Positions 42,117 to 64,000 of a stretch of DNA of 64,000 nt are shown piece after piece. The stretch covers positions 39,664 to 103,663 of the forward strand of contig NZ_JAHBZI010000002.1 in assembly GCF_019635515.1 (NCBI RefSeq), in the 5' to 3' direction. Numbering within the stretch: the stretch's first letter is position 1; each line of letters begins with the position of its first letter. The notes under the pieces are model-generated. The model was not told the DNA's origin. It did not search any database and saw nothing but the letters and a program-made list of their open reading frames with translations. The translations under genes and the position numbers were made by a program. Source of the DNA: Sphingomonas sp. (GTDB lineage: Bacteria > Pseudomonadota > Alphaproteobacteria > Sphingomonadales > Sphingomonadaceae).

Positions 42117-42180
42117 GCGACTTCCAGAACATCGGAAATCCGCCAAAAACCGTCTCCTCGACGGTCGGATTCGCGCGATT

Positions 42181-42283
42181 TCTACACAGAGCGTCTACAC
42201 AATGATGCCGGTGATCGTCCTGCAAAGCCCCCTAAATGCTCGAAAAAGGCGGGCGGTGACGTCTACACAAACCGTCTACACAA
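42181..42283 (+). repeat. Two pairs of TCTACACA direct repeats (putative integrase arm-type sites)
   Basis: TCTACACA at 42181, 42194, 42262 and 42275: 13-bp spacing within each pair and 81 bp between pairs. Three copies extend to GTCTACACAA. Confidence 0.7.
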
Positions 42284-42407
42284 TCGACGTCCGGGCATCG
42301 GTTTCCCTATCGTGGCCCCGCTAATGCAATTAACTTGCAATAGTAAATGATAGGGTGCCCGTGGGATTATGATCCAACACACCGGTTGCGTAGGCGTCAG
42401 GGCCGAA

Positions 42408-43091
42408 TCAGGGTATCACCGGCGCATAGCGGGCGGTTGCCGTGTCACATTCCGGAAGGCGGTTTCGCACCGCTACCGCTTCCGGGTCGGTGCGACCGGT
42501 GAGTCGTTCGCGAAGCGTCCTGACGTCGCACTGGAAGCCGTAGTCGTCCAAGGCGGCGTTGAACGCCTCGGTGCCATAGCCGAAGATGGCCGCGGTCTCT
42601 GCGTGCGCCATGTCGAACGTCTCGCCTTCAATGGTGAACGCACCGGGGGTATCGGTATCGATCCACTCGACGCCTGGCCTGAATCCCGTCATCTCGTATC
42701 CGCCATCCGCGGGACGGACGATGCCATCTGCCGGACCCTTCACGATCACCGTGGCAATCCGGCCGATATGGCCGGCGCGGACGTGGAAGCCGGCCTGGAT
42801 GCGGTCGAGCGGCATGATCGCCAGGCAATCGAACACGACGAGCGTCTGGCCGCCGAGCGCGATCGATCGGCCTCTGCACCCGGCGCGGTCGCGTCCGACG
42901 GGAAGGACCAATGTTTCCAGAGAGCCCGCGCGCGCGAGGGTCGGCACATCGACTGTCGGCAAAAGCAGTTTGCCGGGCTGCCCGGTTTCGTCGCCGGGAT
43001 TTGGCACGCTACCGTAAGAATCCTGTGCGACGACGGCATAGATGCCGGGAGCGACACCGAACCCCCCGCCGGTTGATCGAAAGTGCGTCAT
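42408..43091 (-). CDS. Hypothetical protein (227 aa), no family recognised
   Basis: Open frame with protein-like composition from ATG 43091 (MTHFRSTGG...); the track extends it to 43229. Confidence 0.6.
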   Translation of the reverse strand: MTHFRSTGGGFGVAPGIYAVVAQDSYGSVPNPGDETGQPGKLLLPTVDVPTLARAGSLETLVLPVGRDRAGCRGRSIALGGQTLVVFDCLAIMPLDRIQAGFHVRAGHIGRIATVIVKGPADGIVRPADGGYEMTGFRPGVEWIDTDTPGAFTIEGETFDMAHAETAAIFGYGTEAFNAALDDYGFQCDVRTLRERLTGRTDPEAVAVRNRLPECDTATARYAPVIP

Positions 43092-43148
43092 GTCGTTCCG
43101 CCTTGCGGATGGATGTTCTCGCTCTGGGCGAAAACGTTCCCGCACATC

Positions 43149-43162
43149 TTGATCAACCTCAA
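43149..43162. promoter_or_regulatory. Fnr/FixK-type box upstream of the orphan gene
   Basis: TTGATCAACCTCAA, one mismatch from TTGAT-N4-ATCAA, centred about 65 bp upstream of ATG 43091. Confidence 0.7.
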
Positions 43163-43233
43163 TTCGGGCATCCGTCACCGATGGTGCGGCTCGCGAGGCC
43201 TTCAACGACAGAGTCGGCCCCGGTACCACCCAG

Positions 43234-43305: not shown

Positions 43306-43327
43306 GGCGTTCCGAATTGCTCCGCGC

Positions 43328-43864
43328 TTACGCGCACAGATGCCAGAGGCGGGGGACGTGGCTCGCCAGCGAGCAGGGCCGGTGCCGACTGTCGAGCTCG
43401 AACCGCAGCACATGATCCCACGCGTCGCAGCACCCGCCCGTCGATCCGGGCAGGCAGAAGATGAAGGTGTCGTCGATCTGACCGGCAAGCGCGCGAGATT
43501 GCAGGGTGGAGGCGCCGACGGTGGCGAGGCTCACCTGGTGGAAGACCACCGCAAAGCCATCCATCTCGCGGCGGAGCAGGGGCCTGACCGCCTCGGGGGT
43601 CACGTCGCGCGGCGAGAAACCGGTTCCTCCGGTCGTCAGGATGACGTCGATCCCGGGATCGCCGCTCCACGCGCGAATGCTTCTCCGGATCGAGCGGATG
43701 TCGTCGGGGATTATCTCGCGCCTGGCGAGCCCGTGACCCGCAGCCTCCACCCGCGTCGCCAGCGCGGCGCCCGATCTGTCGGTCGCGAGCGTGCGCGTGT
43801 CGGAGACCGTCAGGATCGCGAGCCGCAGCGGATGAAAGGTCAGCGTATCGTCAATTCCGGCCAT
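43328..43864 (-). CDS. moaB: Molybdenum cofactor biosynthesis protein B
   Basis: AILTVSDTR...DRSG, ILTTGGTGFSPRDVTPEA, QSRA, FCLPGS and LDSRHRPC. Confidence 0.92.
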   Translation of the reverse strand: MAGIDDTLTFHPLRLAILTVSDTRTLATDRSGAALATRVEAAGHGLARREIIPDDIRSIRRSIRAWSGDPGIDVILTTGGTGFSPRDVTPEAVRPLLRREMDGFAVVFHQVSLATVGASTLQSRALAGQIDDTFIFCLPGSTGGCCDAWDHVLRFELDSRHRPCSLASHVPRLWHLCA

Positions 43865-43909
43865 GCATGCCTCCGGGGAAGCAATGTGCAGGTTTCGTCC
43901 CTGCCCGAA

Positions 43910-43923
43910 TTGACCTGCCGCAA
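43910..43923. promoter_or_regulatory. Crp/Fnr-family box 1 in the moaB/narK divergent region
   Basis: TTGACCTGCCGCAA (TTG-N8-CAA), centred about 52 bp upstream of the moaB ATG. Confidence 0.6.
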
Positions 43924-43937
43924 TGCCGCGCGCGCCT

Positions 43938-43955
43938 CTTTGTCCTGCAACAAAG
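43938..43955. promoter_or_regulatory. Crp/Fnr-family box 2 (NnrR-like flanks) in the moaB/narK region
   Basis: CTTTG-TCCTGCAA-CAAAG inverted repeat with TTG-N8-CAA spacing. Confidence 0.5.
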
Positions 43956-44093
43956 AAAGCGGGGTCGAAGCCTCGTACCGACAGGAAATAGGGTCGTCGG
44001 TTGTTGGAAGGCAAGCGGCTGAAGGTACTTGCCCGGACAGTTCGGACTCGTCCGGGAAGCACGCCTTCATCGGCACTACGGCAGGGAGAAGGG

Positions 44094-46817
44094 ATGTCCG
44101 TTCCGGCTACCGATCAGCCCGTACCCGGCGCGGATCGGGTGCTGTGGACGAGCACCGTCGCCTTCACGGTCTGCTTCGCGGTCTGGACGATCTTCTCGAT
44201 CATCGGGTTGGGCGTGAAAGATCGCCTCGGGCTCTCCGAAACCGAGTTCGGGCTTCTCGTCGGCGCGCCGATCCTCACGGGCTCGGTCGCGCGCGTGCTT
44301 CTCGGGATCTGGGCCGATCAGCTCGGCGGACGGCGCGTCTTCGCGGGAGTGATGGCGCTCGCCGCGGTCGCCACCTTCCTCACTTCCTTCGCCCATAGCT
44401 ACGGCCAGCTGCTCGTGGCGGCGTTCGGCGTCGGCCTTGCGGGCGGCGCCTTCTCGGTGGGCGTGACCTATGTCTCGAAATTCTATCCGCCCGAAAAGCA
44501 GGGGATGGCGCTCGGCATCTTCGGTGCCGGCAATGTGGGGTCGGCGGTCACCAAGCTGCTGGCGCCGTTCGTGATGATCGCGATGGGATGGCAGGCGGTC
44601 GCGCAGATCTGGGCGGGCGCGCTGCTCGTTATGGCCGTGCTGTTCCTGCTGCTCACGCGCGAGGATCCGGAGAGCATCGCGCGCCGCCGCGAGGGCCGCC
44701 GGGCGGCGCCGATGGGCAGCCAGCTCGCCGAGCTCAGGAACATCCAGGTCTGGCGATTCGCGCTCTATTACTTCTTCGTCTTCGGCGCCTTCGTGGCGCT
44801 CGCCTTGTGGCTGCCGCGCTATCTGATGGGAGTCTACGGGCTCGACGTCGAGACGGCCGGCATGCTCGCGGCATTCTTCTCGGTGCCGGCGAGCATATTC
44901 CGCATCTATGGCGGCAAGCTTTCCGACCGCTACGGCGCGCGTTCGGTCCTGTACGTGACGCTCGGCGTCTCGCTGCTCTGCCTGTTCATGCTTTCCTATC
45001 CGCCAACGACCTATATCATCCAGGGCGTCCGCGGGCCGATCTCCTTCCACACCGAGATGGGGCTGGTTCCCTTCCTCGTCACGATCTTCGTGCTCGGCTT
45101 CTTCATGAGCCTCGGCAAGGCGGCGGTATTCAAGCATATCCCGGCTTACTATCCCAGCCATGTCGGCGCGGTTGGCGGGCTCGTCGGCATGATCGGCGGG
45201 CTGGGTGGCTTCGTCCTGCCGCTCGCTTTCGGGGCGCTCAACGACCTGACCGGCATCTGGACGAGCTGCTTCGTATTGCTGTTCGCGCTGGTCGGCGTGT
45301 CGCTCGCCTGGATGCATTTCGCGATCCGGCACATGGAGCGCACTGCCGCGCGCCAAGGCATGCAGGCCGAGATGCCCGAGCTTCCCGAGATGCAGGGATT
45401 GGGCGAGGCGGGGGTCACCGTGCCGCCGCGGCGCGCCGGGCCGATCGCCGACTGGCGGCCCGAGGATCCGGCGTTCTGGGAAGCCGGGGGCCGCGCGGTG
45501 GCGCGGCGCAACCTGTGGATCTCGACCTATTGCCTGCTGCTTTCCTTCGCGATCTGGATGGTATGGAGCGTCGTCGTCGCGCGGCTGCCGGGGATCGGCT
45601 TCGCCTTCACCACCGATCAGTTGTTCTGGCTCGCGGCGGTGCCCGGCCTGTCGGGCGCGACGTTGCGCATCTTCTACGCCTTCCTGGTGCCGATCTTCGG
45701 CGGGCGGCTATGGACGACCTTGTCGACCGCATCGCTGCTGATTCCGGCGTTCGGGATCGGCTATGCCGTGCAGAACCCCGACACGCCGTATCTGATCTTC
45801 CTGGTGCTGGCGCTGCTCTGCGGGCTCGGCGGGGGCAATTTCGCGTCCTCGGTCGCCAATATCAGCTTCTTCTTCCCCAAGGCCGAGAAGGGCAATGCGC
45901 TGGCGATCAATTCGGGGCTGGGCAATCTCGGCGTCAGCGCGATGCAGTTCCTCGTGCCCGTCGCGGTGACGATGAGCCTGTTCGGCGCGCTGGGCGGGCA
46001 GGCGCAGACGCTGGCCGACGGCGGCTCGATCTGGCTGCAGAACGCGGGCTTCCTGTGGGTGCCGCCGATCATCGTGGGGACGCTCGCCGCCTGGTTCGGG
46101 ATGAACGACATCCTCAGCGCGAAATCGTCCTTCGCGGATCAGGCGGCGATCTTCGGGCGCAGCCACACCTGGATCATGTGCTGGCTCTATACCGGCACTT
46201 TCGGCACCTTCATCGGCATGTCGGCGGGCTTTCCGCTGCTCTCCAAGCTGGTGTTCCCGCAGGTGGACGCGCTGCGCTACGCCTTTCTCGGTCCGCTGAT
46301 CGGCGCTCTATCGCGTGCGGGAAGCGGATGGATCGCCGACCGGGTGGGCGGCGCCAGGGTCACCTTCTGGGTCTTCGTCGCGCAGATCGGCGCGACCGCC
46401 GGCATGATCTGGTTCCTTCAGTCGGGGAGCTTCCCGGGCTTCTTCGCGATGGTGCTGCTGCTGTTCTTCGTCAGCGGGGTCGGCAATTCCTCCACCTTCC
46501 AGATGGTCCCCGGAATCATGCGCAGCACGATCGACCGGGCGATGGCCGAGCACGGCGCGGAGGAGCGGCGGATCCAGGCCGAGCGCGAATCGGCGGCGGT
46601 GATCGGCTTCACCTCGGCGATCGCGGCGTTCGGCGCCTTCTACATTCCCAAGGCCTATGGCTCGTCAATCGAGCTGGCGGGCAGCGCCACCCCCGCGCTG
46701 TGGGGCTTCCTGGTCTTCTACCTGAGCTGCGCGGCGCTGACCTGGGCGGCGTACAGCGGGCCGCGCGGCCTGTTGCGCGGCGCGACCGGCGCCAAGCCTT
46801 CCCCCCTTCCGGCCTGA
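44094..46817 (+). CDS. narK: Fused NarK1-NarK2 nitrate/nitrite transporter (907 aa)
   Basis: Two MFS modules, each with nitrate signature motifs (ALGIFGAGNVG / GNALAINSGLGNLG; GGGNFAS). Linker with PIADWRPEDPAFWE. Confidence 0.93.
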   Translation: MSVPATDQPVPGADRVLWTSTVAFTVCFAVWTIFSIIGLGVKDRLGLSETEFGLLVGAPILTGSVARVLLGIWADQLGGRRVFAGVMALAAVATFLTSFAHSYGQLLVAAFGVGLAGGAFSVGVTYVSKFYPPEKQGMALGIFGAGNVGSAVTKLLAPFVMIAMGWQAVAQIWAGALLVMAVLFLLLTREDPESIARRREGRRAAPMGSQLAELRNIQVWRFALYYFFVFGAFVALALWLPRYLMGVYGLDVETAGMLAAFFSVPASIFRIYGGKLSDRYGARSVLYVTLGVSLLCLFMLSYPPTTYIIQGVRGPISFHTEMGLVPFLVTIFVLGFFMSLGKAAVFKHIPAYYPSHVGAVGGLVGMIGGLGGFVLPLAFGALNDLTGIWTSCFVLLFALVGVSLAWMHFAIRHMERTAARQGMQAEMPELPEMQGLGEAGVTVPPRRAGPIADWRPEDPAFWEAGGRAVARRNLWISTYCLLLSFAIWMVWSVVVARLPGIGFAFTTDQLFWLAAVPGLSGATLRIFYAFLVPIFGGRLWTTLSTASLLIPAFGIGYAVQNPDTPYLIFLVLALLCGLGGGNFASSVANISFFFPKAEKGNALAINSGLGNLGVSAMQFLVPVAVTMSLFGALGGQAQTLADGGSIWLQNAGFLWVPPIIVGTLAAWFGMNDILSAKSSFADQAAIFGRSHTWIMCWLYTGTFGTFIGMSAGFPLLSKLVFPQVDALRYAFLGPLIGALSRAGSGWIADRVGGARVTFWVFVAQIGATAGMIWFLQSGSFPGFFAMVLLLFFVSGVGNSSTFQMVPGIMRSTIDRAMAEHGAEERRIQAERESAAVIGFTSAIAAFGAFYIPKAYGSSIELAGSATPALWGFLVFYLSCAALTWAAYSGPRGLLRGATGAKPSPLPA

Positions 46818-46832: not shown

Positions 46833-49800
46833 ATGAGCCATTTCCTCGATCGCCTCACCTATTTCCGCCGGGCGCGGGATACCTTTTCGGACGGGCACGG
46901 CATCACCACCAACGAGAGCCGCGACTGGGAGGACGCCTATCGCAAGCGCTGGGCAGCGGACAAGATCGTGCGCTCGACCCACGGCGTGAACTGCACGGGC
47001 TCCTGCTCGTGGAAGATCTACGTCAAGGGCGGGATCGTCACCTGGGAGACGCAGCAGACCGATTATCCGCGCACCCGTCCCGATCTGCCCAATCACGAGC
47101 CGCGCGGTTGCCCGCGCGGCGCGAGCTATAGCTGGTATCTCTATTCGGGCACGCGCATCAAATATCCGCTCGTCCGCGCCCGGCTGGTCCGCCACTGGCG
47201 CGAGGCGCGCAAGACGATGACGCCCGTCGCGGCGTGGAAGGCGATCGTCCAGGATGCGGATAAACGGCGCGACTGGGTCGCCAAGCGCGGGCGCGGCGGC
47301 TTCGTCCGGGTCGGCTGGGACGAAGTGACCGAGCTGATCGCCGCGGCGAACGCCTATACGATCAAGGAGCATGGCCCCGACCGGATCGCCGGCTTCTCGC
47401 CGATCCCGGCGATGTCGATGATCTCCTATGCGGCGGGCAGCCGTTACCTGTCGCTGATCGGCGGCAATCTGCTCAGCTTCTACGACTGGTATTGCGACCT
47501 GCCGCCCTCGTCTCCGCAGACCTGGGGCGAGCAGACCGACGTGCCCGAGAGCGCCGACTGGTACAATGCCGGCTTCCTGCTCGTCTGGGGTTCGAACATC
47601 CCGATGACGCGCGCGCCCGACGCGCATTTCTATTCGGAGGTCCGCTACCGCGGCGCCAAGAGCGTGGTGATCGCGCCGGACTTCAACGAGGCGGCGAAAT
47701 TCTCCGACCTGTGGCTGCATCCCAAGCAGGGGACCGACGCCGCGCTCGCGCTGGCGCTGGGCCATGTCGTGCTGCGCGAGTTCCATGTCGACCGGCAGGC
47801 GGAGTATTTCGCCGACTATACGCGCAAATATTCGGACTTCCCGCTGCTGGTGACGCTGGTCGAGCAGGACGGCCGGCTGGTGCCCGGCCGGATGCTGCGC
47901 ACCGCCGACCTGCCGGGAGGGCTGGGCGAGACCAACAATCCCGACTGGAAGGCCGTCGCCTATGACGAGCTGTCGGGCGATCTGGTCGCGCCGATTGGCT
48001 CGGTCGGTTTCCGCTGGGGCGAGCAGGGCAAGTGGAACCTCGAGGAGAAGGACGGCGCGGGGCGCGACGTGAAGCTGCGCACGACGCTCGCGGGCCATGA
48101 GGATGCGATCGAGCCGGTCGCTTTCCCCTATTTCGGCGGCACCGCGCCGCACGACTTCGTCGCCACCGGGCATGACGAAGTGCTGATGCGCAATGTGCCG
48201 GTGAAGGCGATCGCGACCGCCGACGGCGGCAGCGTCAAGGTCGCGACCGTGTTCGACCTGTTCTGCGCCAATTACGGCGTCGATCGCGGCTTCGGCGGCG
48301 GCAACGTCGCCGCGAGCTATGACGACGACGTGCCCTTCACCCCCGCCTGGGCGGAGAAGGTGACCGGCGTTCCCCGCCAGGCGATCATCCAGGTCGCGCG
48401 CGAGTTCGCCGACACCGCCGAAAAGACCAGGGGCCGCTCGATGGTGATCCTGGGGGCCGGGCTCAACCACTGGTATCACATGGACATGAGCTATCGCGGG
48501 ATCATCTCGCTGCTCGTGATGTGCGGCTGCATCGGCCAGTCAGGGGGCGGCTGGTCGCATTATGTCGGCCAGGAGAAGCTCCGGCCGCAGACCGGATGGA
48601 CGCCGCTCGCCTTCGCGCTCGATTGGACGCGTCCGCCGCGCCAGATGAACGGCACGAGCTTCTTCTACGCGCACACCGACCAGTGGCGCTACGAGACGCT
48701 CAAGATGTCCGAGATCCTGTCGCCGGTCGCGCCGGAGGGAGACTGGTCCGGAAGCGTGATCGACTTCAACGTCCGCGCCGAGCGGATGGGCTGGCTGCCC
48801 TCGGCGCCGCAGCTCGAAAGCAACCCGATCGAGCTTGGCCGCCACATCAGGGATACCGGCGCCGATCCCGCCACGGTGGTCGCCGACGGGATGCGCTCGG
48901 GCGAGCTGCGCCCCGCCAACCTCGATCCCGACAACCCGGTCAACTGGCCGCGCAATATGTTCTTCTGGCGCTCGAACGTGCTGGGCGCGAGCGGCAAGGG
49001 GCACGAATATTTTCTCAAGCATCTCGTTGGCTCGATGCACGGGGTCGTCGGCTCCGACGAGGATCGCGCGCGGATCGAGAAGCCGCAGGACGTGGTGTGG
49101 CGCGACGAGGCGCCGGTGGGGAAGCTCGACCTGATGGTCAATATCGACTTCCGCATGTCGACCACGAGCATCTATTCCGACATCGTGCTGCCGACCGCGA
49201 CCTGGTACGAGAAGCACGACCTCAACACCTCGGACATGCACCCCTTCATCCATCCGCTGTCGGCGGCGGTCGATCCGGCCTGGGAAGCGCAGAGCGACTG
49301 GAACATCTTCCGCGCGATCGCCAAGAAATTCTCCGACGTCGCGCCCGAAGTGCTCGGCGTCGAGCACGATGTGGTGATGACGCCGATCCAGCACGACACG
49401 CCGGGCGAGCTCGCCCAGCCCTATGAGCCCAGGGACTGGCTCAAGGGCGAATGCGATCCGGTGCCGGGCAGGACCATGCCCAACGTCACGCTGGTCGAGC
49501 GCAACTATCCCGAGACCTTCGCGCGCTTCACCTCGATGGGGCCGCTGCTCGAGAAGCTCGGCAACGGCGGCAAGGGCATCGGCTGGGACGCCAGGCACGA
49601 GGTCGGCCTGCTCGGTGACCTCAACGGGCGCGTGCTCGACGGCCCGACGGCGGGCCGGCCGAAGATCGACACCGACATCGACGCCTGCGAGACGATCCTG
49701 ATGCTCGCGCCCGAGACCAACGGCGAAGTCGCGCTCAAAGCGTGGGCGGCGCTGGGCAAGGCGACCGGGCGCGACCACCGCCATCTCGCGGAGGGCAAGG

Positions 49801-50615
49801 AGGAGGAGAAGATCCGCTTCCGCGACGTCACCGCGCAGCCGCGCAAGATCATCTCCTCGCCGACCTGGTCCGGGTTGGAGAGCGAGAAGGTCTGCTACAA
49901 TGCCGGCTACACCAACGTCCACGAGCTGATTCCGTGGCGGACGCTCACCGGCCGACAGTCGCTCTATCAGGACCATCACTGGATGCGCGCGTTCGGCGAG
50001 GGCTTCGTCACCTGGCGCCCTCCGATCGACACCAAGACGGTGCTGCAGGTGATCGGGAAGCTGCCCAACGGCAACAAGGAGATCCTGCTCAACATCCTGA
50101 CCCCGCACCAGAAATGGGGCATCCACTCGACCTATACCGAGAATTTGATCCTGCTCAGCCTCAACCGCGGCGGGCCCACGGTGTGGGTCAGCGAGGACGA
50201 TGCGACGGCGGCGGGCATCGAGGACAATGACTGGATCGAGGTGTTCAACGTCAACGGCGCGCTGACAGCGCGCGCGATCGTCTCGCAGCGCATCATGCCC
50301 GGCTCGGCGATCATGTACCACGCCCAGGAGAAACTGGTGAACACGGTCGGCTCCGAGATCACCGGCCAGCGCGGCGGCATCCACAATTCGGTGACGCGGA
50401 TCAACATGAAGCCGACCCACATGATCGGCGGCTACGCCCATCTCGCCTACGGCTTCAACTATTACGGGACGGTGGGCGCCAATCGCGACGAGTTCGTGAT
50501 CGTGCGCAAGATGAGCGAGATCAACTGGTTCGACAAGCGTGCCGACGAAGGCGCCAATGTCGAGGGCGGCACCGCCGATTGGGGCACCGGCGTCAAGGCG
50601 GAGGCAGCGGAATGA
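46833..50615 (+). CDS. narG: Respiratory nitrate reductase alpha subunit
   Basis: STHGVNCTGSCSW FS0 motif, NHEPRGCPRGASYSWY, FYDWYCDLPP, TPHQKWGIHSTY and YYGTVGANRD. Confidence 0.98.
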   Translation: MSHFLDRLTYFRRARDTFSDGHGITTNESRDWEDAYRKRWAADKIVRSTHGVNCTGSCSWKIYVKGGIVTWETQQTDYPRTRPDLPNHEPRGCPRGASYSWYLYSGTRIKYPLVRARLVRHWREARKTMTPVAAWKAIVQDADKRRDWVAKRGRGGFVRVGWDEVTELIAAANAYTIKEHGPDRIAGFSPIPAMSMISYAAGSRYLSLIGGNLLSFYDWYCDLPPSSPQTWGEQTDVPESADWYNAGFLLVWGSNIPMTRAPDAHFYSEVRYRGAKSVVIAPDFNEAAKFSDLWLHPKQGTDAALALALGHVVLREFHVDRQAEYFADYTRKYSDFPLLVTLVEQDGRLVPGRMLRTADLPGGLGETNNPDWKAVAYDELSGDLVAPIGSVGFRWGEQGKWNLEEKDGAGRDVKLRTTLAGHEDAIEPVAFPYFGGTAPHDFVATGHDEVLMRNVPVKAIATADGGSVKVATVFDLFCANYGVDRGFGGGNVAASYDDDVPFTPAWAEKVTGVPRQAIIQVAREFADTAEKTRGRSMVILGAGLNHWYHMDMSYRGIISLLVMCGCIGQSGGGWSHYVGQEKLRPQTGWTPLAFALDWTRPPRQMNGTSFFYAHTDQWRYETLKMSEILSPVAPEGDWSGSVIDFNVRAERMGWLPSAPQLESNPIELGRHIRDTGADPATVVADGMRSGELRPANLDPDNPVNWPRNMFFWRSNVLGASGKGHEYFLKHLVGSMHGVVGSDEDRARIEKPQDVVWRDEAPVGKLDLMVNIDFRMSTTSIYSDIVLPTATWYEKHDLNTSDMHPFIHPLSAAVDPAWEAQSDWNIFRAIAKKFSDVAPEVLGVEHDVVMTPIQHDTPGELAQPYEPRDWLKGECDPVPGRTMPNVTLVERNYPETFARFTSMGPLLEKLGNGGKGIGWDARHEVGLLGDLNGRVLDGPTAGRPKIDTDIDACETILMLAPETNGEVALKAWAALGKATGRDHRHLAEGKEEEKIRFRDVTAQPRKIISSPTWSGLESEKVCYNAGYTNVHELIPWRTLTGRQSLYQDHHWMRAFGEGFVTWRPPIDTKTVLQVIGKLPNGNKEILLNILTPHQKWGIHSTYTENLILLSLNRGGPTVWVSEDDATAAGIEDNDWIEVFNVNGALTARAIVSQRIMPGSAIMYHAQEKLVNTVGSEITGQRGGIHNSVTRINMKPTHMIGGYAHLAYGFNYYGTVGANRDEFVIVRKMSEINWFDKRADEGANVEGGTADWGTGVKAEAAE

Positions 50616-54544: not shown

Positions 54545-54855
54545 TGATGCTGGGCGACCTGCTCGCGGCGGCGCGCGATTCCGCAGGCGGGTTCCTGCGG
54601 TGGCTGCACGGCTCGGACCCGGAGCTTGCCGAGCAGGTGGCGGCGGCTGCGGCGCGCGAGGGTCTTGCGCCGGGATCCTATGTCCGTGCCGCGGTCGCCG
54701 ATTTCGCGCGCTTCGCGAGTGAGGAGGATTGGGCTAGTTTGACCTCGGCGATGCGCGACGATGTCGATCCGGGCACGATATGCCTGCTGGCGATGGTCCA
54801 CTGGCGCCTGACCGCGCCCGGCTGCGCCGCGCACGCGGGAAGCAATATTGGCTGA
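54544..54855 (+). CDS. Hypothetical protein (103 aa), translationally coupled to the PPIase
   Basis: TGATG overlap and GC-rich coding bias; 3' part of track ORF 54037-54855. Confidence 0.7.
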   Translation: MMLGDLLAAARDSAGGFLRWLHGSDPELAEQVAAAAAREGLAPGSYVRAAVADFARFASEEDWASLTSAMRDDVDPGTICLLAMVHWRLTAPGCAAHAGSNIG

Positions 54856-54867
54856 GAGGAGTGCGCG

Positions 54868-55077
54868 ATGCGCGACGATGACCGACTGCCGGCGAGCGAC
54901 GCGCCCCTCAACCCGGCGCTCAAGAGCGGGATCGAGACGAGCGTCGATACCGAACGCACCACCCCCGCGCCGATCGAGACCGCGTCAGCGAAGGAAGGCG
55001 AGGGCGAAGGCTGGCCGGTGATCTGGCTGGTCGTGGTCGTCTCGTGCGTCGCGCTGACGGTCTATCTCCTGCTCTGA
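54868..55077 (+). CDS. Small membrane protein (69 aa) with a C-terminal TM helix
   Basis: GAGGAG Shine-Dalgarno; acidic N-terminus; hydrophobic C-terminus WPVIWLVVVVSCVALTVYLLL. Confidence 0.65.
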   Translation: MRDDDRLPASDAPLNPALKSGIETSVDTERTTPAPIETASAKEGEGEGWPVIWLVVVVSCVALTVYLLL

Positions 55078-55145: not shown

Positions 55146-56312
55146 ATGCAGGACGACATCATCATCGTCGGCGCGGGGCCGGCCGGGCTGAGCCTTGCCA
55201 ACTCGCTGGCGGGGCACGGCCTCTCCATCGCCCTGGTCGAGCGCCAATCGCTGGAGCAGCTGGAGGCCCCGGAGTTCGACGGCCGCGAGATCGCGCTCAC
55301 CCATCGCTCGGTCGGTATCCTCAATGGGCTTTCGGTCTGGCCCGAACTCGCTGCCGAAGCCGCACCCATGCGCGAGGCGCGGGTATTGAACGGTGCATCT
55401 CCCTTCGCCCTGACCTTTGATTCCGGCCAGGCGATCGAAGGGCTGTTGGGATGGCTCGTGCCGAACCACGCGATCCGCCGCGCGCTCTATCGGGCCGTGC
55501 TATCGCGACCCGATGTGCGGATTGTGACCGGGGCCGAGGCGGCTGCGGTCCACACCCGCGCATCGGGCGCCGAGTTGCGGCTGCGCGATGGGCGCTCGCT
55601 TCGCGGCCGCCTGCTCGTCGCCGCCGATTCGAGGATGTCGGCGGTCCGCGACATGCTGGGCATTTCCGCGCATATTCGCCGCACCGGCCGCGCGATGCTG
55701 GTATGCCGCATGGAGCATGACGGCGATCATGCGCGAACCGCGACCGAATGGTTCGATCACGGCCAGACGCTGGCGCTCCTGCCGCTGAACGGGCGTATGT
55801 CGTCGGCGGTGATCACGCTGCCGTCGCACGAGGCCGAGCGGCTGATGGCGCTCGGCACCGAAGCGTTCGAGGCCGAGATGGAGCGCCGCTTCGCCCATCG
55901 CATGGGCCGGATGCGGCTCGCCAGCTCGCGGCATCTCTATCCGCTGACCATCACCTGGTCGCGCCATTTCGCGGCGACACGCGCGGCGCTGGTCGGCGAT
56001 GCCGCGGTGGGGATGCATCCGGTGACCGCGCACGGCTTCAATCTCGGGCTGCTTGGCCAGCACGGGCTCGCGCGGCAGGTGCTCCGCGCGGCGCGGCGCG
56101 GAGGCGATCCCGGCGCCGAGGGCCCGCTTAAGCGCTACGAGGCGCTCCACCGGCTCGCCTGCCGTCCGCTCTACGACGCGACCAACGCGCTGGTGGCGCT
56201 CTACACCCGCGAAAGTCCCGTCGCGCGCCTGGCCCGGCCCGCCGTGCTGAGGCTGGGACAACGGTTGCCGCTGGCGCGGCGGGGGATCGGCGCGCTGCTC
56301 GCCCAGCGTTAG
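55146..56312 (+). CDS. ubiM: UbiM-like FAD-dependent ubiquinone hydroxylase
   Basis: IVGAGPAGL, PEFDGREIALTHRS, AADSR.S..R, TATEWFDHGQTLALLPL and GDAAVGMHPVTAHGFNLGL, typical of the UbiM clade as I recall it. Confidence 0.78.
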   Translation: MQDDIIIVGAGPAGLSLANSLAGHGLSIALVERQSLEQLEAPEFDGREIALTHRSVGILNGLSVWPELAAEAAPMREARVLNGASPFALTFDSGQAIEGLLGWLVPNHAIRRALYRAVLSRPDVRIVTGAEAAAVHTRASGAELRLRDGRSLRGRLLVAADSRMSAVRDMLGISAHIRRTGRAMLVCRMEHDGDHARTATEWFDHGQTLALLPLNGRMSSAVITLPSHEAERLMALGTEAFEAEMERRFAHRMGRMRLASSRHLYPLTITWSRHFAATRAALVGDAAVGMHPVTAHGFNLGLLGQHGLARQVLRAARRGGDPGAEGPLKRYEALHRLACRPLYDATNALVALYTRESPVARLARPAVLRLGQRLPLARRGIGALLAQR

Positions 56313-56329: not shown

Positions 56330-57544
56330 TTAGGCTGCCAGCCTGAGCTCGAGCCTGCCCCAGATTTCGGTGAGAGCGTTGACGAGATCGCGCATCATGG
56401 GTTCGTCATGCGCGGGTCCGGGCGTGAAGCGCAGCCGCTCGGTGCCGCGGGGCACGGTGGGGTAGTTGATCGGCTGGACGTAGACGCCATATTCGGCGAG
56501 CAGCACATCGCTGATCTTCTTGGCCTTGACCGGATCGCCGACCATCAGCGGGACGATGTGCGTGGTCGAGGCGAGGACGGGGAGACCGGCCTCCGCCATC
56601 ATCGCCTTGAGCTTGGCGGCGGCGGCGTGCTGGCCGTCGCGCTCGGCGGTCGAGCCCTTGAGGTGCTTGACCGACGCCAGCGCGCCGGCGACCAGCACCG
56701 GCGACAGGCTGGTGGTGAAGATGAAGCCCGGCGCGTAAGAGCGGATCACGTCGATGATCATCTGGTCGGCGGCGATATAGCCGCCCATCACTCCGAACGC
56801 CTTGCCGAGCGTGCCTTCGAGGATGGTGATGCGGTGGGCGACTTCGTCGCGCTCGGTGATGCCGCCGCCGCGCGGGCCGTACATGCCGACGGCATGGACC
56901 TCGTCGCAATAGGTCAGCGCGTTGTACTTGTCGGCGAGGTCGCAGATCCCGGCGATCGGGGCGATGTCGGCATCCATCGAATAGACGCTCTCGAACGCGA
57001 TCAGCTTGGGCAGCGCGGGGTCGTCGGCGGCCAGCAGCTCCTCGAGATGGGCGAGATCGTTGTGGCGGAACACGCGCTTCTCGCAGCCCGAATTGCGGAT
57101 GCCGGCGATCATCGAGGCGTGGTTCAGCTCGTCCGAATAGACGATGCAGCCGGGCAGGATTTTGGCCAGCGTCGCCAGCGTCGCTTCGTTCGAGACATAG
57201 CCCGAGGTGAACAACAGCGCGTTTTCCTTGCCGTGGAGATCGGCCAGCTCGCGCTCCAGCTCGATATGGTAATGGGTGTTGCCGCCGATGTTGCGCGTGC
57301 CGCCAGAGCCGGCGCCGACGTCGTGCAGCGCCTCCTCCATCGCCGCGATCACCTTGGGATGCTGGCCCATCGCCAGATAGTCGTTCGAGCACCACACCGT
57401 GATCGGCTTCGGTCCGTTATGCCCCGCGAAACACCGCGCATTGGGAAACATCCCCTTGTTACGCAATATGTCGATGAACACACGGTACCGTCCCTCCGCA
57501 TGCAACCGGTCAATAGCGCCGGCGAAAATCTGCTCGTAATCCAA
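56330..57544 (-). CDS. hemA: 5-aminolevulinate synthase
   Basis: [49 protein letters not shown] and INYPTVP.GTERLR. TTG start (MDYEQIF). Confidence 0.95.
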
Positions 57545-57710
57545 CGCTCGTCCCCACCCGGATTGCTGATGGGAGGCTTTTATCGAGTGCATTGGCGGCC
57601 GGGTATCCGGTCGTTCCCCTCCGGTGTGTCCCCTAGGTCGGTCACCCGAATTTTCGCTCGCCCCGCCGCCGCCTATCGGACAACCCTCTCGAATTCCGAA
57701 GGGGGATACA

Positions 57711-59984
57711 ATGCACTCCAGGAAGTTGTGGCTGTGGCTGGGGGCGATATTTGTGCTCTCGTTCGCGGTCCTCGGCCTTATCGGCCGGGAAATCTATGTG
57801 AAGGCGCCGCCGGTGCCCGAGACGGTGGTCACCACGCAGGGCGACATCGTCTACACCAAGGACCAGATCCAGTCCGGCCGCGAAGCCTGGCAGACGCTGG
57901 GCGGCATGCAGCTCGGCTCGGTCTGGGGCCATGGCGGCTATGTCGCGCCGGATTGGGGCGCCGACTGGCTCCACCGCGAAGCGCTCGCGCTGCTCGACAT
58001 CTGGGCGCAGAAGGAGAAGGCCAAGCCCTTCGCCCAGCTCGGTGCGGAAGAGCAGGCATCACTCCGGGAGCGGCTCAAGACCGAGCTTCGCACAAACAGC
58101 TACGATGCCAAGACCGGCGCGATCACCGTGTCGGCGGAGCGCGCGCAGGCGATGGCGCAGGTCGGGGATCATTATGCCCGGCTGTTCAGCAGTGATCCCC
58201 GGCTTACGCACCTGCGCGAGCAATATGCGATTCCCGAGCGTTCGCTCGTCCGCGCACGCGACCGTACCGATATCGGCGCCTTCTTCTTCTGGACCGCCTG
58301 GACCAGCGTGACGCAGCGGCCGGACGATACGATCAGCTACACCAACAACTGGCCGCACGAGCCGCTGGTCGGCAACACGCCTTCGGCCTCGCTTGGCATG
58401 TGGTCGATCGCGAGCGTGCTGTTCCTGATCGCCGGGGTGGGCTGGCTGACCTGGCATCAGGCGCGCCGCGGCGAGGACGAGCATGCCGAGGCGCCGGCGG
58501 CCGATCCGCTGCTCGGCATGACGCCGACGCCGTCGATGAAGGCGTCGCTCAAATATTTCTACACCGCGCTCGCCTTGTTCCTGACGCAGGTGCTGCTGGG
58601 CGCGATCACCGCCCATTACGCAGTGGAGGGCCACGACTTCTACGGCATCGCGATATCCGACGTCATCCCCTATGCCCTGACCCGTACCTGGCACACGCAA
58701 CTAGGCATATTCTGGATCGCCACCGCGTGGCTGGCGACCGGGCTGTACGTCGCGCCGATGCTCTCGGGCCACGAGCCCAAATTCCAGCGGTTTGGCGTCA
58801 ACCTGCTCTGGGTGGCGCTGCTCGTCGTCGTCGTCGGATCGTTCGCGGGCGAATGGTTCGCGATCCAGCAGAAGCTCGGGCACGGCGCCAATTTCTGGTT
58901 CGGCCACATGGGCTACGAGTTCGTCGATCTGGGCCGCTTCTGGGCGATCCTGCTGTTCGCTGGGCTGATGATCTGGTTGACCCTGGTCGGCCGGGCATTG
59001 TGGCCGGCGCTCAAGACCCCGACCGAGAGCCGCGGGCTGATCGGCATGGTGTTCGTCTCGACGATCTGCATCGGCCTGTTCTTCGGTGCGGCGCTGACCT
59101 GGGGGCGGCACAGCCCGCTGTCGATGATCGAGTATTTCCGCTGGTGGGTGGTCCATCTGTGGGTCGAGGGCTTCTTCGAGGTCTTCGCCACGGCGGTGAT
59201 TGCGCTCATCTTCGCGGGGCTCGGTCTGGTGCGCGCCCGGGCGGCGAACACCGCGGTGGTCTTCTCGACCGCGGTGTTCCTGACCGGCGGCATCCTCGGC
59301 ACGCTCCACCACCTCTATTTCTCCGGCACCACGACTCCGATCATCGCCTGGGGCGCGATGTTCTCGGCGCTCGAAGTCGTGCCGCTGGCGCTGTTGGGGG
59401 TGGAGGCGTTCCACAACTATCGCATGACCAAGGCCGCGCCCTGGGTGCAGACCTACAAATGGCCGATCCTGTTCTTCGTGGCGGTGTCGTTCTGGAACCT
59501 GGTCGGCGCCGGCATCCTCGGCTTCGCGATCAATCCGCCGATCTCGCTCTACTATGTTCAGGGCCTCAACCTGACGGCGAGCCACGGCCATGCCGCGCTG
59601 TTCGGGGTCTATGGCATGCTCGGCATCGGGCTGATGCTGTTCTGCCTGCGCACCACCTTCCGCGGTGCCAACTGGTCGGACGCGCTGCTCAAGCCCGTGT
59701 TCTGGACGCTCAATCTCGGGCTCGCCGGCATGGTGTTCCTGAGTCTCGTGCCCGCCGGGCTGTACCAGGCGTATCACAGCGTCACCAACAGCTTCTGGTA
59801 CGCGCGCTCGCCGGAGATCGTCCACAGCCGCGTCATGGAGACCCTGGTATGGATGCGCGTGCCCGGCGACATCGTGTTCGGCACCGGCGCGATCGTGCTG
59901 GCGCTGTTCATGGCGCGGCTGCTCTTCGCGCGGCGCGGGCCGCGCGGCGTCTATGCCGAGCCGGAGCTGGTGCCCGCCGAATAA
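57711..59984 (+). CDS. norB: Quinol-dependent nitric oxide reductase (qNor, single subunit)
   Basis: [38 protein letters not shown] and [11 protein letters not shown]; 757 aa with N-terminal periplasmic domain. Confidence 0.95.
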
Positions 59985-59994: not shown

Positions 59995-60028
59995 GGGCCG
60001 GTCTCGCATGCGAGACCGGCCCATTTTT
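59995..60028 (+). terminator. Intrinsic terminator after norB
   Basis: Perfect 28-bp palindrome GGGCCGGTCTCGCATGCGAGACCGGCCC followed by ATTTTT. Confidence 0.8.
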
Positions 60029-60049
60029 CGAATTTCAGGAAAGTCCACG

Positions 60050-61249
60050 ATGAAACCCGACAGCGAAATCCACGCGCGGCTGATGCGCCTCCCGCCGGTC
60101 TTGCGCGGCGGGTTTCGTCCCTTCTTCCTCGGCGGTGCACTATGGGCGCTCGCGGTGGTCGCCTTGTGGGTGTGCGTCCTGTCGGGCGGCGTCACGTTGC
60201 CCACCGCCTTCGATCCGCTTGCCTGGCACCGCCACGAGATGCTGTTCGGCTATCTGGGCGCGGTCGTCGCGGGCTTTCTGCTGACCGCGATCCCCAACTG
60301 GACCGGGCGCACGCCGATCGCCGGGGCGCCGCTGGCCGGGCTGTTCGCCCTCTGGGTCGCCGGCAGGCTGGCGGTGTTCTTCTCCGCTGCCGCCGGGCCC
60401 GCGGTCGCGCTGGTCCTCGATACCGGCTTCCTCGCCGTCATGGCGCTCATCGCCGCGCGCGAGGTCATCGCCGCGAAGAACCGGAATTTTCCGATCGTCG
60501 CGGCGGTCGGCTTGTTCGCTGCGGCCAATGCGCTCGATCACATGGAAGCGCTCGGCGTCCCTGTCCCGGCGGGACTCGGCTGGCGCTGCGGATTCGCGAT
60601 CGTCCTGCTGCTCGTGTCGCTGATCGGCGGGCGGATCATCCCCGCCTTCACGCGCAACTGGCTGGTCAAGCAAGGGCGCGAGCGGGGGCTTCCCGTCCAG
60701 ACGAACCGCTTCGACATCGCCACCTTGCTGACGACCGCGCTCGCACTGTTCGCCTGGGCGGCCTCGCCCGACAGCAGCGCGAGCGGCGGGTTGCTGATCG
60801 CCGCCGGCCTGCTGCAGACGATCCGGCTCGCGCGCTGGTCGGGCTTGCGGACGTGGCGCGAGCCGATCGTGCTCATCCTGCACATTTCCTATGCGTGGCT
60901 GCCGCTCGGGCTGCTGGTGCTCGGCGGCAGCGCCTTCGTCTGGTGCATCCCGGTCTCGGCCGCGACGCATGCGCTGAGCGCCGGAGCGATGGCGTCGATG
61001 ACGCTGGCGGTGATGACGCGGGCGTCGCTCGGCCATACCGGCCGCGAGCTCCGCGCCGATGGCTGGACGCAGGCGATCTATGCGCTCGTCACCGCCGGCG
61101 CGGCGCTGCGCTTCGCGGCGCCGATGCTCCCCGTCGATTATATGCCCGGGATCGCCGCCGCCGGGGCGCTGTGGGGCGCGGCGTTCCTGCTGTTCGTGCT
61201 CGCTTACGGGCCGAAGCTGCTCGGGCCGCGGCCCGACGGCATGCCCTGA
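60050..61249 (+). CDS. nnrS: NnrS family heme-copper membrane protein (NO tolerance)
   Basis: GFRPFFLGG, WHRHEMLFGY..AVVAGFLLTAIPNWTG, GGRIIPAFTRN, LHISY.W and GHTGR.L. 3' part of track ORF 58400-61249. Confidence 0.93.
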   Translation: MKPDSEIHARLMRLPPVLRGGFRPFFLGGALWALAVVALWVCVLSGGVTLPTAFDPLAWHRHEMLFGYLGAVVAGFLLTAIPNWTGRTPIAGAPLAGLFALWVAGRLAVFFSAAAGPAVALVLDTGFLAVMALIAAREVIAAKNRNFPIVAAVGLFAAANALDHMEALGVPVPAGLGWRCGFAIVLLLVSLIGGRIIPAFTRNWLVKQGRERGLPVQTNRFDIATLLTTALALFAWAASPDSSASGGLLIAAGLLQTIRLARWSGLRTWREPIVLILHISYAWLPLGLLVLGGSAFVWCIPVSAATHALSAGAMASMTLAVMTRASLGHTGRELRADGWTQAIYALVTAGAALRFAAPMLPVDYMPGIAAAGALWGAAFLLFVLAYGPKLLGPRPDGMP

Positions 61250-61363
61250 TCGCGGCCTCCGGGAAGCGGCTCCGGGATACTCCCTAGGGTCAACATCCCA
61301 ATTTGCCGCGGCGGCCCGGGAGTGCATCCCGAAGCGGGGACTCAGAAAGCCGAGGACAGGCAT

Positions 61364-61615
61364 ATGCTTAAGACCGAACCAGCGCTCACGTCGCGCGACG
61401 TTGCGGCCGTATGGCCGACCGCGACCCTGATGGCGCCGCTTCCGGTCATCGATTTCGGCACCGCGCGGCCGCGCCCGCCGCGCGATGGCGCGCCACGGCG
61501 TGACGCCGTCGCCGCGCCTCGTGCCTGGTGGCGCCTGTCGGCGCTGTTGCGGCTGCGCGTGCTCGGGCCGCAACCGGCGGGGGCGGGGCTGTGCCATGAA
61601 CGTTATCGAGTTTGA
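61364..61615 (+). CDS. Small hypothetical protein (83 aa)
   Basis: GAGGA Shine-Dalgarno before ATG 61364; overlaps the nfu start by 20 bp. No family recognised. Confidence 0.4.
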   Translation: MLKTEPALTSRDVAAVWPTATLMAPLPVIDFGTARPRPPRDGAPRRDAVAAPRAWWRLSALLRLRVLGPQPAGAGLCHERYRV

Positions 61616-62219
61616 GGCGACGCCCAATCCCGACGCCCTGCGCATCCTGCCGGGGATTCCCCTCGCGCCCGCGCAGCCACGCCAGTTCACCAGCCAGAAT
61701 GCCGCCGCTGACCCGCTCGCGACCGCGCTGCTGGCGATCGACGGCGTCGTGCGCATTCTGATCGGCGCGGACTTCGTGACCGTGGTGCGCGAGAATGCCG
61801 GCTGGGCCTGGGAAAGGTTGCGGCCCCAGATCGCGCTCGCTTTGTCGGATGTCGTCAACGGGGGTCTTGCGCTCGCGCCACCGCCCGAGCCGGCGGATCG
61901 CGCGCCGCTGGGCGAGATCGGGCAGCAGATCGAAGAGGTGCTCGACCGGTGGGTCCGGCCGCTATTGGCGGCGGACGGTGGCGAAGCGGTGCTCGTGCGC
62001 TTCGATCCGGTCGACGGGACCGCCTGGGTCCGCTTGGACGGCGCGTGCGGCGGCTGTCCGTCTGGCAGCATCACGCTCAAGCGCAGCATCGAGCAGACGA
62101 TCCGTCGCTGGGTTCCGGAAGTGGCGCGGGTGCTGGCTGCGGAAAGCGAGGCGCCGCGCGACGAAGATCCCAAGGCGCGCTTCCGCCGCTGGATCGCCGA
62201 GAAATGGGGAAAGGGCTAG
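61596..62219 (+). CDS. Nfu/NifU-like Fe-S cluster carrier (Nfu_N + NifU C-terminal CxxC domain)
   Basis: E.TPNPDAL, GADFVTV, VRP....DGG and GACGGCPSG.ITLK. Confidence 0.88.
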   Translation: MNVIEFEATPNPDALRILPGIPLAPAQPRQFTSQNAAADPLATALLAIDGVVRILIGADFVTVVRENAGWAWERLRPQIALALSDVVNGGLALAPPPEPADRAPLGEIGQQIEEVLDRWVRPLLAADGGEAVLVRFDPVDGTAWVRLDGACGGCPSGSITLKRSIEQTIRRWVPEVARVLAAESEAPRDEDPKARFRRWIAEKWGKG

Positions 62220-62827
62220 GCCAGCCGCGCGATCATCACCATCCGCACGAGTTCCGACAGCGTGCGCGCGTCGGTCTTGGTCATCACGTTCGCGCGATAG
62301 ACCTCCACGGTGCGTGCGCTGATCTCGAGGTCGTACGCGATCACCTTGTTCGCCTTGCCCTCGATCAATCCTTCCATCACCTCGCGCTCGCGCCCGGAGA
62401 GCGTCGCGAGGCGCCGGCGGATCTCGTCGCGTTCCAGCTCGATCTCGCCGCGGCTCTGCTGCCGGGCGAGCGCGGTGCGCACCGCCATCAGGATGGCTTC
62501 GTCGCTGAACGGCTTCTCGATGAAGTCGGAGACCCCGGCATGGAGGGCCTGGATCGCCATCGGCACGTCGGCATGGCCGGTGATCATGATCACGGGATCG
62601 GTCACGCCCATCGACTTCAGCTTGGCGACGAGCTCCATGCCGCTCATTTCGGGCATCCGCACGTCGGTGATTATGCAGCCATGCTCCATGACCGGCACCG
62701 CCTTGAGGAACGGCGCTGCCGATTCGTAGGTGCGCGTCGCTATCTCCGAGCATCCGAGCAGGAAGGAGAGCGAGCCGCGGACGCCCTCGTCGTCGTCGAC
62801 AATATGAACCACCGGCTCATTCGGCAT
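62216..62827 (-). CDS. fixJ: Response regulator FixJ
   Basis: [34 protein letters not shown] and Lux[25 protein letters not shown]. Confidence 0.93.
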
Positions 62828-64000
62828 CGCTGAGTTCCTCCTTGCTGACGCTGGGAACGGTGAAGCTGAAGACGGCGCCGCCGCCTTCATTCGCTCCCGC
62901 CCAGATCTTTCCGCCATGCGCTTCCACGATCGTGCGGCAGATGGAAAGCCCCACGCCCATGCCGGTGCGCTTGGTGGTGACGAAAGGCTGGAAGAGCTGA
63001 TCGGCGACGTCGGGCCGAATTCCCGGGCCGGTGTCGGCCACGGTCACCATCGCCATCCCCGCATCGTCCGTCGCAACGTTGATCGAAAGCTCGCGCCGCT
63101 CCGATCCGGTCATCGCGTCGATCGCGTTGCGGATCAGGTTCAATATCACCTGCTGGATCTGGACCTTGTCGACGAGCACCAGGTCGATTTTTGGCTGCAG
63201 ATCGATGCGGGCGCGCACGCCATATTCCTTGGCGCCGACCAGCGCGAGTGCGCTCGCCTCTTCCAGCAGCTTGGGCAGGCTCTCCAGCCGGCGCTCGGTC
63301 TCGCCGCGCGAGACGAAGTCGCGCAGGCGGCGGATGATCTCGCCGGCGCGCAGCGCTTCGCTCGCGGCGCGCTCGACCGCGTCGGCGACCTTGTCTTGCG
63401 GCACCTGCTCGCGCTTGAGCAGCATCCTGCTGCCCGACAGATAGTTGCCGATCGCGCTCAGCGGCTGGTTGAGTTCGTGCGCGAGCGCGGAGGCCATCTC
63501 ACCGAGCGCGGTGAGCCGCGACACATGGACCAGCTCGCTCTGAAGCTCTTGCAGGCGCGTCTCGGTCTGCTGACGCTCAGTCAGGTCGCGCACGAAGCCG
63601 GTGAAGAAACGGCCCTCGGTGAGCTCCATCTCGCCCACGGCGAGCTCCATCGGGAAGGTCGAGCCGTCCTTGCGCTCGCCGACGACGACGCGGCCGACGC
63701 CGATGATGCGCCGCTCGCCGGTCTGGTAGTAGCGCTCGAGATAGCCGTCATGCGCCTCGCGATAGGGAGAGGGCATGAGCATGCTGACGTTGCGCCCGGT
63801 GACTTCTTCGGAGGTCCAGCCGAACTGGCGCTCGGCGGTGTCGCTGAAATCGCGGATCAGTCCGTCCTCATCGATGACGATCATCGCATCGGGGACGGTC
63901 TGGAGGATCGAGGTCAGGTGCGCCTCACGCCGCTCGAGTTCGCGTGCGATTGCCGCCTCGTCGCTCCGCGCGCGCTTCAGCCAGGCGCCGCCGACGGCGA
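62817..64000 (-). CDS. fixL: Heme-PAS oxygen sensor histidine kinase FixL (5' end outside the window)
   Basis: [30 protein letters not shown] (heme His), [17 protein letters not shown] and [10 protein letters not shown]. The frame stays open to the window end. Confidence 0.94.

Follow-up and report, generated by a model that had tools for sequence, protein, structure and literature searches.

Sphingomonads are usually regarded as strict aerobes. Gene clusters serving life at low oxygen are known from rhizobia and Rhodobacter, where FixLJ-FixK or FnrL systems (fixNOQP-fixGHIS, hemN) combine the heme-PAS kinase FixL and its partner FixJ with Crp/Fnr regulators and TTG-N8-CAA boxes. In Thermus thermophilus a strain-specific nar cluster with its own regulators, the transferable element NCE, is described as able to make a facultative nitrate respirer of an aerobe by horizontal transfer. 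Within the sphingomonads, the anaerobic regulon of Sphingopyxis granuli TFA comprises narUGHJI with ftrB, norB-nnrS, ccoNOQPGHIS, nrdZ and two fnr genes; anoxia induces nar, norB-nnrS, cco and the oxygen-independent ribonucleotide reductase, and nitrate reduction stops at nitrite (PMC6472365, PMC4741004, PMC7713065). Here we describe an accessory block of nitrate-respiration and low-oxygen genes beside the tRNA-Gly(GCC) gene of a Sphingomonas sp., whose assembly (3.54 Mb) consists of two contigs, C1 and C2. The stretch analysed, hereafter the window, is the 64,000 nucleotides of C2:39,664-103,663. Gene identities in it rest on Pfam and NCBIfam profile matches, and the sequence beyond its end was also read. 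The original prediction, made from the window alone, had described an island of more than 21 kb past the tRNA; such a block is present, and its full extent is 37.5 kb (C2:81,781-119,321), from tRNA-Gly(GCC) to a DUF72 gene, the far end lying 15.7 kb past the window end (virtual coordinate 79,658).

Judged from its genes alone, the block resembles the TFA system in its predicted reduction of nitrate to nitrite only, its use of the quinol-dependent nitric oxide reductase (qNor) and NnrS against nitric oxide (NO), its cbb3 oxidase, its oxygen-independent ribonucleotide reductase and its Fnr-type regulators. The nar genes of TFA are strain-specific within its genus, and the TFA genes are scattered over the chromosome, whereas the block packs them into 37.5 kb beside a tRNA gene and goes beyond the TFA set with FixLJ, hemN, hemA, ubiM, nfu and moaB. 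NarG proteins of other families of the order are ~66-71% identical to the block NarG, in an alignment from which TFA was absent. With the rhizobial and Rhodobacter clusters the block shares FixLJ, Crp/Fnr regulators, TTG-N8-CAA boxes, a divergent fnr-cco arrangement and hemN beside fnr; unlike them, it also includes Nar, qNor, NrdJ and cofactor genes and has no link to nitrogen fixation. The likeness to NCE is drawn from the general description of that element, which is reported to move by conjugation, whereas the block contains neither transfer nor integration genes.

Taken together, the comparisons below make it reasonably probable that the block is a fixed, composite low-oxygen and nitrate-to-nitrite supercluster, seated at a hotspot for islands with DUF6538-type integrases, of which only the attL arms are left, and that it is a mosaic which includes a native hemA. 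That the block was carried by the island before its decay, and that it instead overwrote the island's interior, are about equally likely.

The adjacency of a thioredoxin gene and tRNA-Gly is kept across the Sphingomonadales, and in five close relatives the tRNA is followed by only 0.6-1.6 kb before the DUF72 gene. These comprise the two closest species representatives by thioredoxin (L001 and L011; gap 0.65-0.8 kb) and the three closest same-genus genomes by FtsK identity (G010, 83%; G110, 82%; G030, 82%). In the latter three the backbone is collinear over at least 19 kb across the slot, with a gap of 0.6-1.6 kb. Similarity between the relatives and the present genome ends 1-9 nt past the tRNA and restarts 15 nt before the DUF72 start codon; the slots of the relatives hold small native genes (DUF2147-like, GntR-type) that are absent from the present genome. 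The block is thus missing from the same site in relatives with collinear flanks and is, on this comparison of sequences, a real insertion at the tRNA-Gly slot, as the original prediction of a tRNA-Gly-anchored island had it. The L001 locus (CALRJR020000108.1) is labelled as a metagenome-assembled genome of Prosthecochloris vibrioformis; its thioredoxin-tRNA-Gly-DUF72 locus is that of a sphingomonad, with 74-91% identity to the present genome, and the bin is probably contaminated or mislabelled.

Composition gives no sign of foreign origin. The GC content of the block is 0.674 against 0.655-0.660, and its tetranucleotide distance falls at the 91st percentile, true outliers lying 2-3 times further from the genome mean, so that the contrast with the backbone expected of a genomic island was not seen. 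Composition was discarded as an indicator because the likely donors belong to the same genus. A backbone-like GC content and tetranucleotide usage would equally be expected if the block were an ancestral chromosomal cluster inherited vertically and lost by the relatives, with its position beside the tRNA and the scar being a coincidence. Further points in favour of such descent are that the best homologues of every module are Sphingomonas proteins, that cbb3 oxidases occur in 20 of 23 genera of the order, and that the hemA copy is native. It is nevertheless an unlikely history: replacement accounts better than five clean deletions for the short slots with DUF2147-like and GntR-type genes in five relatives, just 13 of the 401 species sampled in the genus have narG, in two identity classes that do not follow FtsK, and the cco cluster of G030 itself lies in non-shared DNA. 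Two considerations weigh against our preferred interpretation here, namely that the nearest relatives are only ~82-83% identical in FtsK, so that the insertion could be old, and that separate loss in each relative, in place of insertion, is still conceivable in the strict sense.

The DNA directly past the tRNA identifies the kind of element that used this site. Four copies of TCTACACA, arranged as two pairs with 13-bp spacing, lie 65-168 nt past the tRNA (42181-42203 and 42262-42284). This 8-mer has six copies in the whole genome, and the paired array exists at tRNA-Gly only. When metagenome contigs were scanned for the pair pattern, ten matched; five of these carry the array 60-110 nt past the 3' end of a tRNA (tRNA-Lys, tRNA-Arg or tRNA-Gly-GCC), one of the tRNA-adjacent arrays being on a sphingomonad contig with the same thioredoxin gene. 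The next gene after the array encodes a protein with DUF6538, Phage_int_SAM_5 and Phage_integrase domains in all five contigs with enough sequence. Positions 42117-42293 of the window align to those attL regions through both repeats and spacers and diverge right after the last repeat (~42293). Within the genus the array was found in 5 of 400 other species, against no match of a reversed-pattern control in 401 genomes.

Intact islands, complete with arms, integrase and attR, occupy the same thioredoxin-tRNA-Gly site in two of these species, G380 and G120. The 18-nt att core TCCCTTCGCCCGCTCCAG, which is the last 18 nt of tRNA-Gly, is repeated 22,493 nt downstream in G380 and 13,579 nt downstream in G120, giving islands of 22.5 kb and 13.6 kb, with no respiration genes in either. 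The block, which starts 1 nt past tRNA-Gly(GCC), has in common with the intact islands (at tRNA-Gly in G380 and G120, at tRNA-Lys and tRNA-Arg in the metagenome contigs) homologous attL arms with two TCTACACA-N5-TCTACACAAT pairs, and with those of G380 and G120 also the attachment tRNA beside the same thioredoxin gene. The intact islands have the integrase directly after the arms and an 18-nt attR, both of which are missing from the block, and carry cargo unrelated to respiration, whereas the interior of the block is 37 kb of respiratory genes. Use of the tRNA-Gly 3' end as a genuine integrase attachment site in the genus is supported by these sequences. At the same locus G010 (L140, G010:C45) has a perfect 29-nt direct repeat of the tRNA-Gly 3' end, 92 nt past the tRNA and enclosing a 92-nt insert, which is the att scar of an integrative element since lost; TCTACACA arms are missing from it, and a different element probably left it.

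An integrase and an attR downstream, to which the original prediction had pointed as a check, were not recovered. No tyrosine recombinase was detected by hidden Markov model search within 160 kb of the block, the nearest PF00589 match being at C2:287 kb; there is no PF20172 match on C2, and tblastn of the block with the genome's own integrases gave only noise. Searched genome-wide with mismatches allowed, the 3' end of the tRNA (15-45 nt) had no further copy; in C2:81,790-125,000 a 28-nt match is lacking even with 6 mismatches allowed, and no stretch of 10 nt from the 18-nt core recurs. Nor are there transfer genes in the block, and its non-coding DNA amounts to ~2.8 kb in total (~7%), which leaves no space for hidden mobility genes. 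With the integrase gene and attR gone, the block looks to have become fixed. Counting against this conclusion is a weak gapped match (19/24) to the 3' end of the tRNA, immediately ahead of the DUF72 start codon (P ~0.006 per window), which may be the remnant of an attR; higher scores are reached by five windows within the block, and some of the matching sequence belongs to a native promoter that L001 has too.

These results bear on the self-provisioning mobile kit of the original prediction, acquired in a single transfer, which is taken here as one self-contained block that can still excise from tRNA-Gly and might borrow an integrase in trans. In favour of it, the attL arm region is kept, the same tRNA hosts intact islands in the genus, and there is one DUF6538-type integrase elsewhere, the only one in the genome: a 711-aa open frame at C1:1,463,976-1,466,150, ~90 nt past tRNA-Glu. 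Against this proposal stand the lack of any integrase in or near the block and the missing attR; the tRNA-Glu locus has no TCTACACA arms, so that its integrase probably differs in specificity. In addition, intact family members carry unrelated cargo of 13-23 kb, transfer genes are missing, and the modules of the block are found separately in relatives (see below). We consider such a kit very improbable, and a single transfer stays conjecture. It is also unlikely that a DUF6538-integrase island once carried the block, or carries it to this day with the help of an integrase in trans. The tRNA-Glu locus is a second island of the same broad DUF6538 family. Elsewhere on C1, a region at C1:975-1,085 kb contains an RPA-type plasmid replication initiator (C1:1,002,388) and a tyrosine integrase (C1:975,988), is the strongest tetranucleotide outlier of the genome, and is probably an integrated plasmid or an integrative and conjugative element. 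On contig C2 neither DnaA nor an RPA initiator was found, and its GC skew is ambiguous.

The features of the window from the tRNA onwards are as follows (ORF, open reading frame; PPIase, peptidyl-prolyl isomerase).

42042-42116, plus strand: tRNA-Gly(GCC), by ARAGORN and Rfam, the sole GCC isoacceptor among the 51 tRNAs of the genome
42117-42293, plus strand: attL arm region, orphan, homologous to the DUF6538-integrase island family
42408-43091, minus strand: 227-aa ORF, orphan, with no Pfam or NCBIfam family match
43149-43162: TTG-N8-CAA box TTGATCAACCTCAA, upstream of the 227-aa ORF
43328-43873, minus strand: moaB (molybdenum cofactor biosynthesis), divergent from narK
43874-44093, no strand assigned: moaB-narK divergent promoter region with three TTG-N8-CAA boxes (43910, 43940, 44001)
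44094-46817, plus strand: narK, fused two-domain nitrate/nitrite transporter
46833-50615, plus strand: narG
50579-52138, plus strand: narH
52135-52848, plus strand: narJ
52845-53639, plus strand: narI
53636-54544, plus strand: PpiC-type PPIase, by Pfam/NCBIfam
54544-55077, plus strand: two small ORFs (103 aa and 69 aa), conserved and linked to nar in relatives
55146-56312, plus strand: ubiM, flavin hydroxylase for ubiquinone biosynthesis (NF006593, 510 bits, above the equivalog cut-off)
56330-57592, minus strand: hemA, 5-aminolevulinate synthase, by Pfam/NCBIfam
57711-59984, plus strand: qNor, with a cytochrome c-like domain and COX1
60011-61249, plus strand: nnrS (PF05940, E 2.7e-112)
61485-62219 (likely start 61593), plus strand: Nfu/NifU-type Fe-S carrier (Nfu_N and NifU)
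62216-62917, minus strand: fixJ response regulator (Response_reg and GerE)
62817 to past the window end (virtual coordinate 64466), minus strand: fixL, heme-PAS histidine kinase (HisKA and HATPase_c)

Past fixL come, in this order, a single-domain response regulator, a 161-aa ORF, an FnrN-type regulator, the class II ribonucleotide reductase gene nrdJ, the radical-SAM gene hemN, a second Crp/Fnr regulator, ccoNOQP-GHIS and a 77-aa ORF; the DUF72 gene and a CoA-transferase gene flank the block on its 3' side. All the genes named in the original prediction (narK-narGHJI-PPIase, moaB, hemA, ubiM, qNor, nnrS, Nfu, fixLJ) were recovered by the Pfam and NCBIfam profiles, and the nnrS frame had been read correctly. 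NarG, NarH, NarJ and NarI are all encoded as open frames together with the NarK transporter, and the oxidase cluster has ccoN, O, Q and P with the maturation genes ccoG, H, I and S. The genome has one copy each of the cco, hemN, nar, qNor and nnrS genes, cco being its only cbb3 oxidase cluster, and a second moaB on C1 is 51% identical to that of the block. A homologue of the 227-aa ORF (55% identical) sits at the edge of the nar cluster of GCA_000464255.2 and travels with nar; an earlier idea of a Hint domain in this protein was dropped, as no Pfam or NCBIfam match stands behind it. Both small ORFs are kept after nar in G110, G217 and GCA_000464255.2, the 69-aa product has a C-terminal membrane helix, and the two may be uncharacterised Nar accessory proteins. 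A 90-nt tRNA-Pro(CGG) called by ARAGORN inside the PPIase gene (54195-54284) is without Rfam support and is probably a false positive; Rfam searches for riboswitches over the window and its extension returned tRNA-Gly and nothing else. Between the second Crp gene and ccoN, a 199-aa frame (orfX) looks like an antisense artefact, and the same interval has, on the plus strand, a ~100-aa predicted membrane ORF (C2:110,794-111,100), which lies ~75 bp downstream of a TTG-N8-CAA box.

The nearest whole counterpart of the block is in GCA_000464255.2 (AUOO02000005.1) and in identical JGI/ENA metagenome contigs (L121-L129). There the order is OmpW-hemA-ccoNOQPGHIS-ORF229-nnrS-mobA-narK-narGHJI-PPIase-two small ORFs-ubiM-qNor-nnrS-nnrU-x-nfu, followed by fixJ-fixL-response regulator-x-Crp-nirK-x-cupredoxin-nrdJ. 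Identities to the block are 94% for NarG, which is the nearest homologue, 95% for NarH, and 87% for both NarK and qNor. The two clusters have nearly the same gene set, in the same order from the 227-aa ORF through nar, ubiM, qNor, fixJL, Crp and nrdJ. They differ in that GCA_000464255.2 has cco, with hemA and OmpW, at the opposite end, the block being a circular permutation cut between ccoS and the 227-aa ORF; in that GCA_000464255.2 has mobA, a second nnrS, nnrU, nirK and a cupredoxin; and in that it lacks, unlike the block, both a hemA between ubiM and qNor and a neighbouring hemN. A permuted order is what a circle cut elsewhere would produce and to this degree favours the still-excising kit. 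It was not taken as a sign of a circular intermediate, because the order in S. psychrotolerans (hemN-nrdJ-cupredoxin-qNor-nnrS-nfu-fixJ-fixL-response regulator-x-Crp-nirK) differs too and shows that rearrangement is common without circles; neither a tRNA nor arm repeats were found at the ccoS junction of GCA_000464255.2.

Other relatives possess single modules only. In other contexts, the genomes G035, G110 and G217 share narK-narGHJI-PPIase alone, joined by both small ORFs in G110 and G217; other families share only narK-GHJI. Of 37 genomes sampled in the genus, 8 have ccoN; in G030 and G018 the part shared with the block is ccoNOQPGHIS alone, and the copy of G030 is in DNA without a counterpart in the present genome. 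The NarG identities within the genus fall into two classes (86-92% and ~70%) that do not track FtsK identity, a pattern that suggests at least two independent nar lineages in Sphingomonas. By the differing contexts of its nar, qNor-fixLJ and cco modules in these relatives, the block is best described as a mosaic.

The hemA gene is a further component with a history of its own. Positions 56358-57517 match another hemA copy, at C2:528,571-529,730, at every one of 1,160 bp (100% identity), and identity over 1,184 bp is 99.75%; the two genes differ in their first ~12 codons, promoters and flanks. On the strength of the exact match over 1,160 bp, the copy in the block is seen as a native paralogue and not an import, and looks like the product of recent gene conversion or duplication between two differently regulated 5-aminolevulinate synthase paralogues. 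The idea of a self-provisioning island, with cofactor genes adjoining Nar and qNor, is a plausible description of the arrangement, except that its hemA was not brought in from outside.

Two kinds of oxygen sensor are predicted in the block. The FixL PAS domain matches the solved heme domains of Bradyrhizobium and Sinorhizobium FixL (PDB) with E-values of 1e-45 to 1e-50 (1e-47 to 1e-50 for Bradyrhizobium) and retains the proximal histidine ('AHDGYLERY' aligned to 'RHDSYISRY'). With this PAS domain, the kinase core and a partner of the receiver/LuxR type, FixL and FixJ have the make-up of an oxygen sensor pair with predicted heme binding. The first Crp/Fnr protein contains an FnrN-type cysteine cluster, CFGCPVRDLAIC, which the second lacks. 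The repeated TTG-N8-CAA boxes to which attention had been drawn are not enriched in number: the block has 8 where 4.3 would be expected (P = 0.07), genome windows of the same size reach 8 in 9% of cases, and the window alone has 7 against 6.5 expected. This want of significance tells against the regulatory part of our interpretation. Seven of the eight do sit in the ~7% of the block that is non-coding: besides the box upstream of the 227-aa ORF and the three between moaB and narK, two lie between the FnrN-type gene and nrdJ and one near the second Crp gene, 34 bp upstream of it and inside the divergent cco promoter region. These positions fit a putative control of the Fnr/FixK type, of which the count alone is no proof.

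The gene families, read with S. granuli TFA as a precedent, allow a tentative scheme in which a whole low-oxygen regulon is collected in one block. A drop in oxygen would be sensed by the FixL heme, together with FixJ, and by the FnrN Fe-S cluster, and activators of the Crp/Fnr family would then turn on narK-narGHJI, the cbb3 oxidase, nrdJ and hemN from promoters with TTG-N8-CAA boxes. NarK and NarGHJI would allow nitrate to be respired to nitrite, Nar conserving energy in passing electrons from quinol to nitrate, and the cbb3 oxidase may exploit traces of oxygen. NrdJ and HemN could stand in for the oxygen-requiring steps of deoxyribonucleotide and heme synthesis, MoaB, HemA, UbiM and Nfu probably support the cofactor demand, and qNor with NnrS would clear NO arising from Nar chemistry. 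Among the further genes that the original prediction proposed to look for downstream, a FixK-type regulator and hemN are there; nirK was not found by tblastn with the protein of a relative. Likewise nirS (no PF02239 match) and nosZ (a 23-bit fragment as the sole TIGR04244 match) were not found, so that this is not a complete denitrification system and the predicted pathway ends at nitrite, with some N2O.

The absence of nir and nos would also be in keeping with a more modest function, in which the block serves microaerobic growth through cbb3 and FixLJ, and detoxification of NO and nitrite, while Nar acts in redox balancing without supporting growth. UbiM is an oxygen-dependent hydroxylase, whose unclear role in anoxia fits poorly with the scheme above and well with this alternative; cbb3 and FixLJ are classic microoxic functions; and in TFA anoxic growth on nitrate is poor and nitrosative stress heavy (PMC6472365). 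On the other hand, the set of narK-narGHJI and maturation helpers is complete and 94-95% identical to homologues in other genomes, an identity that points to purifying selection. Moreover, NrdJ and HemN are oxygen-independent enzymes needed for true anoxic growth, and the homologous Nar of TFA supports growth (PMC4741004). A mainly microaerobic and detoxifying function seems unlikely to us, and respiration of nitrate to nitrite is the function we favour for the block.

None of the individual parts of the block is new. Its genome shows respiration, sensing, oxygen-independent biosynthesis and NO defence, that is, the functions of sub-oxic life, gathered in one accessory segment. The phenotype predicted from these genes is anoxic growth by reduction of nitrate to nitrite with release of N2O, and the block offers a compact target for deletion or transplant work in laboratory Sphingomonas. 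Should the block after all have been island cargo, the DUF6538 island family would carry a whole low-oxygen lifestyle between Sphingomonas species via tRNA-Gly, and the patchy occurrence of nar in 3% of the genus would be explained. The family itself, as defined by its DUF6538 integrase, the TCTACACA arm pairs and the 18-nt tRNA core, may help to annotate other alphaproteobacterial islands.

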